From a virus (taxonomy: Duplodnaviria > Caudoviricetes): a stretch of 64,000 nt of DNA. The stretch lies in IMG/VR virus record IMGVR_UViG_3300031151_000426; one strand, given 5' to 3'. Positions 43,919 to 47,823 of the stretch are shown piece after piece. Every line of letters begins with the position of its first letter. The stretch's first letter is position 1. The notes under the pieces were generated by a model. It worked only from the letters and a program-made list of their open reading frames with translations, had not been told where the DNA came from and searched no databases. The translations under genes and the position numbers were made by a program.

Positions 43919-43946
43919 ATTTAACATAAGGGTTCTTACCCGCACC
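43919..43946 (-). other. XerC/XerD dif-like recombination site B
   Basis: Minus strand GGTGCGGGTAA-GAACCC-TTATGTTAAAT: XerD arm identical to E. coli dif, XerC arm 9/11. Confidence 0.85.
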
Positions 43947-44095
43947 GACGAAAACGGACTCGATTAAAATGTCCTTTTAAAGCCGTAAAAGTAGCGATTA
44001 ACTGGGCTGAAAATCGGCCTTTCCGTATACAACACTTTCATAACATTTCGCGGGTATTGCAGTTCGCATGAAATGAATGCTAAAAGCCGTATTTT

Positions 44096-44824
44096 TCACT
44101 TTCTCGGTGCTGGAATCTGTACTTCAGGCCAGCATTTGCAGTTCGGCAAACATCCGGCGTGTCCGGTCATACCGTCCAGCGTCGGCGGGTTATCCCAGCG
44201 CACAAATTTATCTTTCATCTTGCGGTGAGAATCCCGCGTTCCGGCCCCCTTAATACGCCACCAGTAGCCCTCTGAGCCAACCGAAAGGGCTCTGGCCTGC
44301 GTCAGCGCGCCGGTAGCTCGTCCAATCTCTGTACGGGCAATCAGCTGCGCCCTGCTGGCGGCCACATCACCGGAGGCCATAATCATCTCGTAGAGCTCAT
44401 CCGGACGTTCGCCAGTGATAACCGCCTGCATTGCACGCTGTTGTATGTCCATCACGCGATCGGCTGCTTCCAGCGGCAGGGACTTCATCAGCTGAATCTG
44501 GCGATACACGATATCCTGAGCCACCTGACCGACGGGGGTATTACCCACCACATCGCGCAGGCCAGCGCCGATTTCCTCTGATACCGATTTCCACAGGTTC
44601 CATTCCTCCTGCTCGACCTGGGCAAACATCCTTCGCCCGACCTGCTCTGCCCAGTCGCTGATTACCTCGGAATAGTCCACCAGCGTTTTCGAAATGCTGT
44701 CAGCGCTGGCCTGTGAACCATCGTAGGTACCATCGACGATCTGCTCTATCTGGTTTGCTATCGCCAACAGGCTTTTTCGATACTGTATCTCCGAACGACG
44801 GCGGAGGGCTGGTTTCAGATTCAT
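44096..44824 (-). CDS. Head morphogenesis/minor head protein (SPP1 gp7/Mu gpF-like)
   Basis: RA.LIARTE, R.SH, G.HAG...NC.C. Confidence 0.88.
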   Translation of the reverse strand: MNLKPALRRRSEIQYRKSLLAIANQIEQIVDGTYDGSQASADSISKTLVDYSEVISDWAEQVGRRMFAQVEQEEWNLWKSVSEEIGAGLRDVVGNTPVGQVAQDIVYRQIQLMKSLPLEAADRVMDIQQRAMQAVITGERPDELYEMIMASGDVAASRAQLIARTEIGRATGALTQARALSVGSEGYWWRIKGAGTRDSHRKMKDKFVRWDNPPTLDGMTGHAGCLPNCKCWPEVQIPAPRK

Positions 44825-46151
44825 CCTCCGACCACTGGGCCTTCGCATGGTCAATATCCTCGTCGGTAATAGATGCACCGATGCCCGTTACACGAGCCGT
44901 TTCCCTAAGGTCGGTTAATGCGGCGGCGGGAGGCATCCCCAGCTCACGCACGGCGGTCGCCAGTGCGGTAGTGGTGTTGGTTGCCACCGTTGAACGGTCA
45001 ACGTCTGACATTTGCCAGAGGGGGTTAAACTCGAACGTAAAATCGTCCGGCAGCGGCTCCCCAAACTCCGAGCGGTGAAGCACGTCATAGAGCAGACGAA
45101 CTGGGCCACGTAGCGTATTTTCCTGCGCGGCACCGACGTCATCGTAGTAGTTCGCCAGATCCGAATCGCCCGTTGAAAACCCTTTCGGAGACTGGCGAAA
45201 AAGGCGAACCAGCGGAATGCCGACGGCTCCAGCAATATCCTCCTTGAACTCGCTCAGCAGATCAGATAACCCGGCGAACGAGTAGGAGTGCGTTTCGAAG
45301 GTATCTTCAGCATCAAAGAGAGACATCCCCTCATTGGTCTGGAACTGGCGCACCATGTCCATTTGTTTGAGCAGCGCTTCGTATGGTTTTCCACCCATCG
45401 CAATAATTTTGCGCAGTTCCTTTATTTTTGCCGTGCGCAAATGCGCTTTGTAAGCGAGCTGTGCCGCACCAACACTCGTACTGTCATACGATGTCAGGCG
45501 GTCGAAGATACGCTCTACAACAGACATTCCCCACTCGTTTTCTGTGAGAGCTTGCTGGTACGGTAGAGTTATCCCATCCATACGAATCAGCCGACTGTAA
45601 TTCACCGTCCAGGGGGGAATACCCTGTGCAGAAGTAACGATTTCGTAAGTTTCGGGTTTACCAAGCTCAGGCCCGAGTGTCTTGATGCGTCGCCCGAGAT
45701 TAGGATTAATCATCCAACGATCGAGAACAGCGAGGCCTTTAAAGCTGCCTTTTCCCACTTTATCCAGCACCAGAGGCGTCAGAGGTGCCTGACCCTCAAT
45801 GAGGATTAGCCCAACGGCACCACCATACAGCCTGGACCATTTCAGTATCAGGTTCAGCCGCTCCCAGAGTTTTAGCTCTTCAAATCGGGCCTCCAGAATC
45901 CCCCGCCGCTTTGGGTCAATTTCGCTGGTTATTCTGGCCCCTTTTTTTGTCATATCGTCAGGCTTTGCATCAACAGCTGCGCCGATGATCCATGAAGAAC
46001 GATACGCCCATTCCAACAGCAGACGATTGCGGCTGGTGTAATTGGCTCGATAAGTTGACGCTGCATGCTGATTTGGCTGCTGCATGCCAACTCGCGCGAC
46101 AAAGTTATCGTAAGAGTCGGCTGTGGCGACTCTTCCTGTTTTTTTCGCCAT
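44700..46151 (-). CDS. Portal protein (DUF1073-like)
   Basis: Y..SW.....VD...DDM, RLYGG, IP..RLF..SP.G and F.FNPLW; follows terL. Confidence 0.9.
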   Translation of the reverse strand: MAKKTGRVATADSYDNFVARVGMQQPNQHAASTYRANYTSRNRLLLEWAYRSSWIIGAAVDAKPDDMTKKGARITSEIDPKRRGILEARFEELKLWERLNLILKWSRLYGGAVGLILIEGQAPLTPLVLDKVGKGSFKGLAVLDRWMINPNLGRRIKTLGPELGKPETYEIVTSAQGIPPWTVNYSRLIRMDGITLPYQQALTENEWGMSVVERIFDRLTSYDSTSVGAAQLAYKAHLRTAKIKELRKIIAMGGKPYEALLKQMDMVRQFQTNEGMSLFDAEDTFETHSYSFAGLSDLLSEFKEDIAGAVGIPLVRLFRQSPKGFSTGDSDLANYYDDVGAAQENTLRGPVRLLYDVLHRSEFGEPLPDDFTFEFNPLWQMSDVDRSTVATNTTTALATAVRELGMPPAAALTDLRETARVTGIGASITDEDIDHAKAQWSEDESETSPPPSFGDTVSKKPVGDSKPDRADRRWYLRWFTGQR

Positions 46152-46156
46152 AGCTT

Positions 46157-47770
46157 TTATGCTCCGAGCTTAGTCCAGATATCGAGAGAGGAATCCATCG
46201 GCGCGTAGTTAATCATCACGGCGTCGGCGAGGTTCGGCGATTTTGTGCCTTCCGGCTGTTTATCCACGAGGATTTTACCGACGGCGTTTTTCGACCACGT
46301 AGGCTGTGAAAGCTCCATCAGCAGGCGGTCAATATTTTCTATCGCGCTGCTTATCGAAATGATTTCGTCGGGGTTGTAGTCCATCCCGTTCAGCGCGCGG
46401 AAGGTGTTACGAAACAGCTTGCGAAGATGCCACCAGCTCTGAGCTTTCGCGTTCGCGAAGAAGTCTTTATTCAGGCGCGCCGCTTTACCGTTATCACCAG
46501 GAACGGCTTCATCTTCCGGATCGAATACGCTACCGCTACCACGGAAAGGCGTAGCTGTGATTGTTCCCCGGCCTTCAGCCTGCCTGAGCTCGTTTATCAC
46601 GCGAGCATCGCCACGCGCCCCCGCGCCCAGACCGTCCTCATCAAAACGGAACTCATCCAGACCGTAATCGTCACAGTACCCAAACGATTTGACGACAGAG
46701 GCGTAGATGTCGCTGCCAATTCCAGACCATTCGTGAACGTTCTGCAGAAGGAAGCCATAGCGGCAAGAAAAGCCGTTTTTGTCTTTCCCTTCGTCTGCGA
46801 TATCCATTGCGCCGAGGCGCTGGCCGCTGGGCTGAATACCCAGTTTGATATGCGCGTCGACGGCAGCCTGCACCCATTCTGAAGGAATGAGAATCCCCTC
46901 TGTGGATGCGCTGTAGTTCAGGTCCAGTTCCTGAGCAACGATAATCGGATCATCAATTTTCAGACATTCGTTGCGGTACCACTCATCATCCTTGCGCGGG
47001 TCGCTGCGCCAGTGGAACGTAAACACCGGGATATTTCCGCTGTGGCGCTTTTTAGCAAACGGGTTATTCATGCCGTTGACCGAAGAGAGGTCTATACGGC
47101 AACGGGTCGTCTGAGAGAGCGCGGCATCGATGAGTAATGGCCGTTTGAGGAATGCAGACTCATCCACGAAATAAAGCGTTGTACGGTCACCACGGCCAAT
47201 GTTATCGCCAGCCTCTCCCTTAATGACCGCGCCCGTTTCCGGGAACTCCACGCGCATATAAGGGGCATGTTTTTTGTCACTCCATGAACCGCGAAACTCA
47301 ACCGGCAGCAGCTCGACAAACTTCCGTGCCTTCCAGAACAGCGCTTTCGGGTCGCCGGTACTGTCGACATATTCCTCTTTACGGGAACCGAACCCGATCA
47401 CCATTTCTTTGTTGAACAGGCAAAGCGAACAGGCCAGACCGATAGAGGTCCAGCTCAGCCCCATTTCACGGCTTTTTTCTGTCAGTCCATGCTCAAGACT
47501 GGCGCGCCTGTCCATGATCCAGTGAATCCATTCCTCCTGGCGGGGGAACAGCAAAAACGGGATGGTCGCAGGCAGGCCATAATCGAGGTTACGCGGGTCC
47601 GTCGTCATGCCCCAGTCGATGATGAACTGGGCCGGGTTAGTGCGGTAAAACTCACGGAGTGCCGGAAGCATTTCAGGCGCTTTCCTGATCCGCTCCAGCC
47701 TCTCCATTCTCCACTCAAACACGGCGGTATAGTCAGGTTTGCGGAAGTCAAAGGGGAACGGGATCGGCAC
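46157..47770 (-). CDS. terL: Terminase large subunit
   Basis: KSREMG.SW, FVDE, D.A.EG.D and SPNLADA; likely GTG start at 47770 after GAGGA. Confidence 0.92.
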
Positions 47771-47795
47771 AGAAAAATTCCTCAAAAACTCCCCG

Positions 47796-47823
47796 ATTTA
47801 ACATAATGGTCGTTACCCGCACT
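47796..47823 (-). other. XerC/XerD dif-like recombination site A
   Basis: Minus strand AGTGCGGGTAA-CGACCA-TTATGTTAAAT: same arms as site B apart from the outer base, different spacer. Confidence 0.85.

Follow-up and report, generated by a model that had tools for sequence, protein, structure and literature searches.

Plasmid-type Xer-like sites between late genes of temperate tailed phages of Enterobacterales

Described Xer systems and the two sites of the prophage

Sites for XerC/XerD (XerCD) have been described on chromosomes and plasmids, and they serve filamentous, micro- and non-tailed phages for attachment. Phage P1 has a recombinase of its own, Cre, with a single site, loxP, and this system can monomerise or cyclise phage DNA. 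In dif modules, the bounding sites point in opposite directions. Here we describe two XerC/XerD-type sites, A and B, in the late operon of a lambdoid prophage carried by a 64,000-nt stretch of viral DNA (the window), which is the right-hand 64 kb of the 81,230-bp IMG/VR provirus record IMGVR_UViG_3300031151_000426. Their sequences suggest that tailed phages may borrow the host XerC/XerD recombinase.

For plasmid sites built like psi and cer, recombination is described as requiring a negatively supercoiled molecule that carries both sites, and its outcome is the resolution of plasmid multimers (bioRxiv 10.64898/2026.02.23.706985, PMC11724359). Their accessory sequences span ~180-200 bp on the XerC side (PMC11724359, PMC9113270), and the centre of classic cer is 8 bp long (PMC2731167, PMC5357621). 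Sites of this type have an ArgR or ArcA site at a set distance from the core, and their recombination depends on PepA but not on FtsK and is confined to one molecule. Integrative mobile elements exploiting Xer (IMEX), such as CTXphi, TLCphi and the gonococcal island, use host XerCD via dif-like sites (PMC5357621). They integrate at host dif and mostly have no integrases. In the literature searched we found no report of psi/cer-type sites in the structural operon of tailed temperate phages, although supplementary lists of xrs sites and insertion sequence (IS) insertions, which lay outside that search, may contain prophage-borne sites. Supplementary tables aside, the word "phage" occurs 0 times in the portions covered of PMC11724359, PMC10132070 and bioRxiv 10.1101/2022.12.17.520857.

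The two cores of the window are as follows.

43919-43946, minus strand: site A core, GGTGCGGGTAA (XerC arm)-GAACCC-TTATGTTAAAT (XerD arm)
47796-47823, minus strand: site B core, AGTGCGGGTAA (XerC-type arm)-CGACCA-TTATGTTAAAT (XerD arm, identical to that of dif)

They lie in direct orientation with their starts separated by 3877 nt. The initial annotation had reported two intergenic, directly repeated 28-bp sites on the minus strand, and its sequences and coordinates proved correct. The same is true of the E. coli dif sequence that it had quoted, which is tabulated for E. coli K12 and Y. pestis in PMC2731167; the XerD arm therefore matches dif at 11/11 positions in both sites, as had been claimed. 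The XerC arm matches at 9/11 positions in site A and 8/11 in site B, giving whole-arm matches of 20/22 and 19/22, respectively. Xer sites have two 11-bp arms, partly palindromic in their inner bases, on either side of a 6-8-bp centre; both sites follow this layout with a 6-bp centre and inner arm bases TAA and TTA, and positions 10, 11 and 19-27 are invariant across 31 unique 28-mers. A pattern search allowing up to 3 mismatches returned exactly 2 matches in the 64-kb window, compared with 0 in 100 shuffles, and the whole 81,230-bp record holds the same 2 sites and no others. Site B is flanked by the stop of a terS-like gene (47969) on one side, 146 nt away, and by terL on the other, its end lying ~12 nt ahead of the terL Shine-Dalgarno sequence. 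Site A lies 150 nt past the stop (44096) of an open reading frame (ORF) for a Mu F-like head morphogenesis protein (MuF) and before a 71-aa ORF that starts at 43861.

When both intergenic regions were compared with PLSDB by BLAST, many plasmid Xer sites were matched at their cores. The site of L204, a Klebsiella plasmid of 9.3 kb, is GGTGCGGGTAA-gatccc-TTATGTTAAAT, with 28/29 bases identical to site A, and a ColE1-type plasmid (L205) carries GGTGCGCGCAA-gaactc-TTATGTTAAAT, a centre also found in phage sites of the type represented by site A (type II, below). The psi site of pSC101, taken from NC_002056, reads GGTGCGCGCAA-gatcca-TTATGTTAAAC, an 11-6-11 core whose arms are nearly those of the phage sites. 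Local alignment of the two phage sites to psi gave scores of 43 and 39, compared with shuffle maxima of 26 and 25. Psi and the phage sites have in common GAGT-N11 before the core and CGGGCG.GTTT (CGGGCGAGTTT) after it, and in both the conserved region lies on the XerC side. They differ in that psi belongs to a small plasmid, whereas the phage sites lie in the late operon of a tailed temperate phage, often as two copies of differing centre in one genome, with the XerD-side flank conserved as well.

Conservation, cassette structure and insertion sequences

Exact arms around any 6-bp centre were found in at least 119 IMG/VR stretches and in 16 stretches of species-representative genomes, all 16 of them from Enterobacterales (Citrobacter, Enterobacter, Pantoea, Pseudocitrobacter, Klebsiella, Entomohabitans and Rosenbergiella). 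To avoid selection by motif, we also chose relatives by TerL only, taking the best 80 of 441 TerL relatives and scanning them under a loose rule (XerD arm with at most 2 mismatches, 8 XerC positions scored, 3 mismatches overall). A site lies just upstream of terL in 63/80 of these relatives, at -38 to -503, with -38, the placement of site B, being the commonest. A second site is present in 45/80, ~+3.84 to +3.98 kb from the terL start at the junction of the MuF and scaffold genes; the commonest spacing between the two is 3894 nt, and 28/45 two-site loci have a spacing of ~3.9 kb. All 108 sites are oriented with the gene strand, and a single weak reverse-strand match was seen in the 80 loci.

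The XerD arm equals that of dif in 103/108 sites, the remaining 5 having one base changed and none having 2, while there are 20 variants of the XerC arm, all of which have C at position 5. The 6-bp centre has 18 variants, none of which is the dif centre TGTATA, and the centres of one genome are identical in 0/45 two-site genomes. Relatives with the same TerL and portal were expected to preserve the arms at both positions and to differ in their spacers; the TerL-selected loci bear this out, and the mismatch of spacers within a genome holds as well. In genuine Xer sites conservation is highest in the XerD arm and includes the inner arm bases, whereas the centre varies freely (PMC11724359, PMC2731167), and the phage sites vary in this same pattern, which supports their identity as Xer-type sites. 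These comparisons confirm, at the level of sequence, that both sites are real and conserved rather than products of chance, and that they behave as genuine XerC/XerD-type sites would.

Conservation extends beyond each core into ~145-170 nt of non-coding DNA on its XerC side, and core and XerC-side region together appear to form a non-coding cassette of ~180-270 nt that sits between late genes of Enterobacterales temperate phages. Two types are represented in the window.

47824-47968, minus strand: type I region, XerC side of site B (alignment A1, 29 diverse copies)
43947-44095, minus strand: type II region, XerC side of site A, at the MuF/scaffold junction (alignment A2, 19 diverse copies)
43864-43885, minus strand: terminator-like hairpin ~35 nt past site A, kept in type II right flanks

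Mean column identity is 62% in the type I alignment and 77% in the type II alignment, with invariant phased boxes. The invariant boxes of type I, TATGCA and TTTATGCA-N3-TTTATKCA, lie at ~47894-47932 and are phased at 21 and 11 bp, with GAGT or GGGT 11 nt before the core; in 193/202 occurrences the box motif is followed 70 or 80 nt on by an Xer-type core. Type I cassettes are placed before terL, before portal in the Klebsiella/Mulock group with its PBSX-type terL, or right after Q (L009 and the plasmid record pE76_003). Type II regions have an invariant direct repeat, TGTTA-N6-TGTTG, at 44030-44045, centred 91.5 nt before the core, together with GGACATTTTAATCGAGTCC and GAGT 11 nt before the core. 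A 15-codon ORF in the window's type I copy was rejected as a gene since it is broken by indels in relatives, and an apparent type I region lacking a core in pE76_003 was likewise rejected, as a 2278-bp IS parts the region from a core that is present.

Of the 80 relatives, 17 have no site; 11 of these were inspected, and in 9 terS abuts terL. At the downstream position, 44/44 sites occupy MuF-scaffold gaps longer than 150 nt, 7 compact gaps have no site, and SEN34 is compact at this locus. Because the genes of site-less relatives mostly abut, the cassette reads as an insertion, and apparently a dispensable one.

The accessory parts of the plasmid sites offer partial parallels. In psi, TAACA-N6-CAACA lies 88.5 nt before the core, comparable to the 91.5 nt of the type II repeat, which is on the opposite strand. 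The TGTTA/TGTTG repeat and its counterpart in psi are candidate ArcA boxes. Cer resembles the phage sites in combining an XerCD core with an accessory region on the XerC side, and the type I boxes hold ATGCA and ATTCA half-sites that resemble a palindrome in the ColE1-type plasmid L205. Unlike cer, however, the phage sites have a 6-bp centre, and their boxes are direct repeats at 11- and 21-bp spacing and not a palindrome. The type I boxes do not fit the canonical ARG box, and comparing them by eye with the ARG-box, DnaA-box (TTATNCACA, matched twice at 8/9 positions) and PhoP-box consensus sequences settles nothing; the two tandem boxes at 47894-47910, TTATGCAC(G) and TTATTCA(T/C), agree at 7-8/9 positions with the DnaA-box word.

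A further line of evidence comes from two different IS of the ISNCY/IS1202 family, which have entered ~9 separate junctions 5-6 bp from the XerC arm, parting the upstream region from the core. The loci concerned are listed by element.

ISKpn21-type IS: L165, L003/L141, L076, L121, L224/L254, L285, L302
Second IS: L104/L133, L025, L056/L163

At 7/7 right junctions exactly 5 bp separate the ISKpn21-type element from the XerC arm, with five kinds of target duplication (GCGCC, GTGCC, CGGCT, CGCGT and TCGCT), and in 2 loci it is 2278 bp long, the length given for ISKpn21 in PMC10132070. The second element, whose transposase matches the ISNCY family at 491.6 bits, stops 5 bp short of the arm at two junctions and 6 bp short of it at one, type I and type II sites both being affected; in L163 an IS widens the MuF-scaffold gap to 2450 nt. 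At dif and at plasmid Xer sites, elements of the IS1202 family (the ISAba32 subgroup, including ISKpn21) are described as entering on the XerC side, 5-6 bp away and in a single orientation (PMC10132070, bioRxiv 10.1101/2022.12.17.520857). The behaviour of the elements at the phage sites is that of this published targeting, which suggests that Xer-site-seeking elements treat the phage sites as Xer sites and independently supports their Xer-type identity.

Set against the remaining described systems, the phage sites share with the pdif modules of Acinetobacter that several XerC/D sites flank gene modules and that IS1202-family elements lie 5 bp from the XerC arm. They differ in that 108/108 phage sites are co-oriented along the late operon, where they flank essential head genes. 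They share with Cre/loxP of P1 the presence of a site-specific recombination site inside a phage genome, but they would use a host recombinase, and their layout is that of the plasmid "topological filter" type. An IMEX would have a centre compatible with that of host dif and would be bounded by dif/attP hybrid sites, whereas the phage sites are internal to a prophage that has its own integrase, and 0/18 centres equal TGTATA. The initial annotation had argued against IMEX-type integration, and with no dif centre at the sites we agree that such integration is unlikely.

The element also occurs in pE76_003 (L224, CP042502), a circular plasmid record of 76.9 kb with phage genes on it, and a plasmid is the expected place of a multimer-resolution site, so that the cassette in pE76_003 fits a role on a circular replicon. 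The genes of pE76_003 include repressor-like, replication, Q and lysis genes. Ten Klebsiella records of 37-42 kb that represent this phage type are also filed as plasmids, which agrees with such a role too.

Possible roles of the sites

We tentatively favour a reading in which each site is a plasmid-type (psi/cer-like) Xer site at which host XerCD would resolve multimers of circular phage DNA, and we regard this as a serious possibility that stops short of being probable. Host XerC and XerD would bind the 28-bp core, and the upstream ~150-170 nt would act as accessory DNA, probably bound by host DNA-bending proteins, with an interwrapped complex of the upstream regions activating XerCD. Like copies (A x A, B x B) would then recombine in direct repeat on one supercoiled circle, so that dimeric or multimeric circles of the phage genome become monomeric; these circles could be replicating or excised genomes, or could represent a plasmid-like state. 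Since A and B differ in both centre and upstream region, recombination between the two, with loss of terL-portal-MuF as its outcome, would be disfavoured.

Several points weigh against multimer resolution. The cassette is dispensable, as 17/80 relatives and SEN34 illustrate, and a second site is found in 45/80 relatives even though one would suffice for resolution. All 108 sites are co-oriented with late transcription at a few gene junctions, and the XerD-side flank of ~25 nt (TTTTT.AACAAATTATC) is also conserved; no model based on recombination alone accounts for the co-orientation, this flank and the frequent second site. Relative to psi, type II has its TGTTA repeat on the opposite strand, and past ~17 nt the upstream regions have no detectable homology to known accessory sequences. 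Since the phage has its own integrase, its need for monomeric circles is not obvious, and XerCD binding, recombination and accessory dependence, like the biological purpose, are what we infer from likeness to plasmid sites.

If multimer resolution is the true role, these phages would exploit a housekeeping recombinase of the host to manage their own DNA topology, which would be a new host dependency for phages of Enterobacter, Klebsiella, Citrobacter and Pantoea. It would account for IS1202-family elements landing in prophage head operons and for precise prophage deletions of terL, portal and MuF, and it would give phages and small plasmids a ready-made crossover point in common. A bolder possibility follows from centres such as gaactc that are shared with small-plasmid sites: phage DNA and resident ColE1-type plasmids could form cointegrates at them, which would promote plasmid transduction. 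Natural pairs of non-cross-reacting Xer sites would also be on offer as genetic tools.

The pairing of unlike sites bears on a claim of the initial annotation, that the spacer mismatch protects terL-portal from deletion. The centres indeed never match within a genome, but any such protection is incomplete, two proviruses having lost exactly the inter-site genes. In L099 (~2356-2900) the left half of a type I cassette is joined to the right half of a type II cassette directly after terS, with terL, portal and MuF missing, and L005 (~356-1088) has the same kind of joint after a PBSX-type terL, with portal and MuF missing. Both joints fall inside the 28-bp core, making these precise deletion derivatives, and with n=2 cases Xer action and short-homology deletion are not told apart. 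An apparent A x B joint in X1 was rejected, as it is the terL-upstream site of a relative, and the raw-read runs contained 5 partial reads of the phage (X21) or 0 (X22).

Host XerCD might instead serve as a built-in substitute for Cre/lox. Two incompatible psi-like sites, about one terminal-redundancy length apart downstream of pac, would then provide a like pair at the ends of each headful that could be cyclised or monomerised without RecA, while terL-portal-MuF stayed protected; we judge this unlikely. The initial annotation proposed that the sites lie in the terminal redundancy of headful DNA just downstream of pac, where XerCD would join like copies at the ends of injected DNA and so circularise it in the manner of Cre/loxP; this, too, we consider unlikely. 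The position of the sites is favourable to it, as most adjoin packaging genes (before terL in 63/80 relatives, or between a PBSX-type terL and portal) and 28/45 two-site loci have two sites ~3.9 kb apart. A triple repeat upstream of terS, (A/T)TCCGCA or GATAYGCCGCA, is a plausible pac ~0.8 kb upstream of site B, and no Erf, RecT or Bet-like gene was detected among the 8 early-left ORFs searched in the window prophage. Yet the psi/cer layout is described as needing a negatively supercoiled molecule and is not known to work on linear ends, and injected DNA is linear. In L009 and pE76_003 the element is found right behind Q, at a distance from the terminase genes, and phage Mulock has a site together with its own Exo/Bet (PMC6856289). 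In the window, the three (A/T)TCCGCA direct repeats lie at 48620-48725 on the minus strand, the last of them inside a palindrome, and in relatives with another terS allele three GATAYGCCGCA repeats stand in for them; because the triple repeats co-vary with the terS allele, they may mark the pac or TerS-binding region.

It is also improbable, in our estimate, that the cassettes have no selected phage role and act as recombination "linkers" or hitch-hikers, with modules swapped between phages and plasmids by Xer or by short homology. Gene mosaics do break at the cassettes, many loci with a TerL identity of 95-99% having MuF at 95-98% and scaffold at 46-48% identity, and one left flank with its centre pairs with several right flanks. 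The joints of L099 and L005, which bring the left half of the upstream site to the right half of the downstream site, would also be expected of such linkers, as would the two identical type II copies at different junctions in Yersinia phage YP3. Change-point analysis of 430 discordant pairs nevertheless placed many breakpoints 28-88 nt right of the core start, which are not cleavage positions, and much of the mosaic is explained by ordinary recombination within a conserved cassette. That diverged cassettes keep a nearly unchanging XerD arm and invariant upstream boxes argues, moreover, for purifying selection on a function. From a contingency table, the centre had seemed to be inherited together with the left flank; given the spread of change points, we do not claim Xer-catalysed mosaics at the core. 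In YP3 itself (L122, PV092592) the identical type II cassettes lie between terL and portal and after MuF, terS and the type I cassette are missing, and the recombinase gene abuts terL, which reflects an unusual rearrangement or else a fault of the assembly.

Some features that resolution leaves unexplained would be natural if the cassette were regulatory DNA of the late operon, that is, a roadblock, an insulator or an activator-dependent promoter to which XerCD or another protein binds without recombining. These include the strict co-orientation with late genes, the conserved right (XerD-side) flank, and fixed positions just before start codons, with the core ending ~12 nt before the terL Shine-Dalgarno sequence. 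Type II copies are followed by the terminator-like hairpin, and in L009 and pE76_003 a type I cassette fills the gap between Q and the first late gene; both facts point the same way. We nonetheless doubt this reading, because 0 sigma-70-like promoters were predicted on either strand of 43600-48700, compared with 3.6 expected, and the window's late leader (STnc100, 52298-52491) lies elsewhere. An unrelated operator would, in addition, not be expected to match the dif arms at 20/22 (A) and 19/22 (B) positions, to vary as plasmid sites do or to be targeted by IS1202-family elements. The -35 and -10 boxes that we placed by eye have only 3-4/6 matches. In L009 (~2050-2800) and L224, the type I cassette and core come right after the gene of a 144-aa Q-like antiterminator, where a late promoter would be expected; L224 has a terminator hairpin as well, placed after Q and before the cassette.

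The phage encodes a second tyrosine recombinase of 337 aa (48818-49831), and the sites might be its targets rather than those of host XerCD. Its gene lies ~1 kb upstream of site B, it matches Pfam Phage_integrase and has, by eye, the Arg, His-x-x-Arg, His, Tyr signature, and it is present in 33/67 TerL-selected loci with enough upstream sequence, 33/33 of which have a site. It is missing, however, from 20/53 site-bearing loci, which speaks against its being the partner, and sites occur in its absence in the Klebsiella group, in L009 and in pE76_003. Its NCBIfam XerC and XerD scores are 28 and 26 bits against cut-offs of ~330, and the arms of the sites copy dif, all of which makes this reading very improbable.

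That the cassette is a structured RNA element of the late transcript, as a conserved, non-coding cassette in the sense direction might suggest, is largely refuted and retains next to no credibility: there was no Rfam match at E up to 1, and the RNAalifold consensus energies were -0.5 kcal/mol (29 type I copies) and -3.55 kcal/mol (19 type II copies), which amounts to essentially no consensus fold. Compensatory changes were seen in 0/5 predicted pairs of type I, and in type II 6/10 predicted pairs stay paired where both partners have changed, in one or two sequences.

Gene context and minor observations

The lambdoid prophage occupies 25-64 kb of the window and is read on the minus strand. Its features, in prophage order, are given below.

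Ending in the integrase at 62975-64000: CI-like repressor and early-left genes, the start of the prophage order
Next in order: O-like replication protein and primase/helicase
52991-53794: Q antiterminator, after the O-like, primase and helicase genes
52298-52491, minus strand: STnc100 late leader, Rfam match of 96.5 bits, between Q and the holin genes
Downstream of STnc100: lysis genes (holins, endolysin, spanin)
48818-49831, minus strand: second tyrosine recombinase, 337 aa, Pfam Phage_integrase, between the lysis genes and terS
47969-48571, minus strand: terS-like 200-aa protein, weak PHROG terminase-small matches and phrog_26539, upstream of site B
46157-47785, minus strand: terL (large terminase), PHROG 2, E 5e-28, first gene after site B
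44700-46151, minus strand: portal (Phage_portal_3), Pfam E 3e-97
44096-44878, minus strand: Mu F-like head morphogenesis protein, PF04233, E 2e-13, last gene before site A
Downstream of MuF and site A, in this order: 71-aa ORF, DUF2213 scaffold, cement protein, major capsid protein

The true start of terL is probably a GTG near 47770, the STnc100 match is taken to be the late leader of the window prophage, and further minus-strand ORFs beyond the major capsid gene are presumably tail genes.

Two integrase genes, at 23853-24863 and 62975-64000, both on the plus strand, match the same PHROG families. The initial annotation had credited the phage with its own tRNA integrase; the integrase genes are present, but ARAGORN detected 0 tRNA genes in the window. 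The IMG/VR record terminates at the stop codon of the second integrase. Many more ORFs lie at 1-24 kb, among them a second one of 313 aa (14931-15872) that is sized as the major capsid gene of the prophage, and with the two integrases they suggest two tandem prophages.

The 337-aa recombinase looks intact and is unrelated to the end integrase. Within 80 nt after its stop there is a conserved palindrome, TTATCCACATAGTGG, followed by GATCCACTAT, which could be this recombinase's own site. The word TTATCCACA in the palindrome is a perfect DnaA-box word. Finally, a 17-nt inverted repeat, complementary at 16/17 positions, pairs 42045-42061 in the cement-protein gene with 48668-48684 in the recombinase-terS gap, 6.6 kb apart; by a rough estimate, ~0.1 such pairs would be expected by chance.

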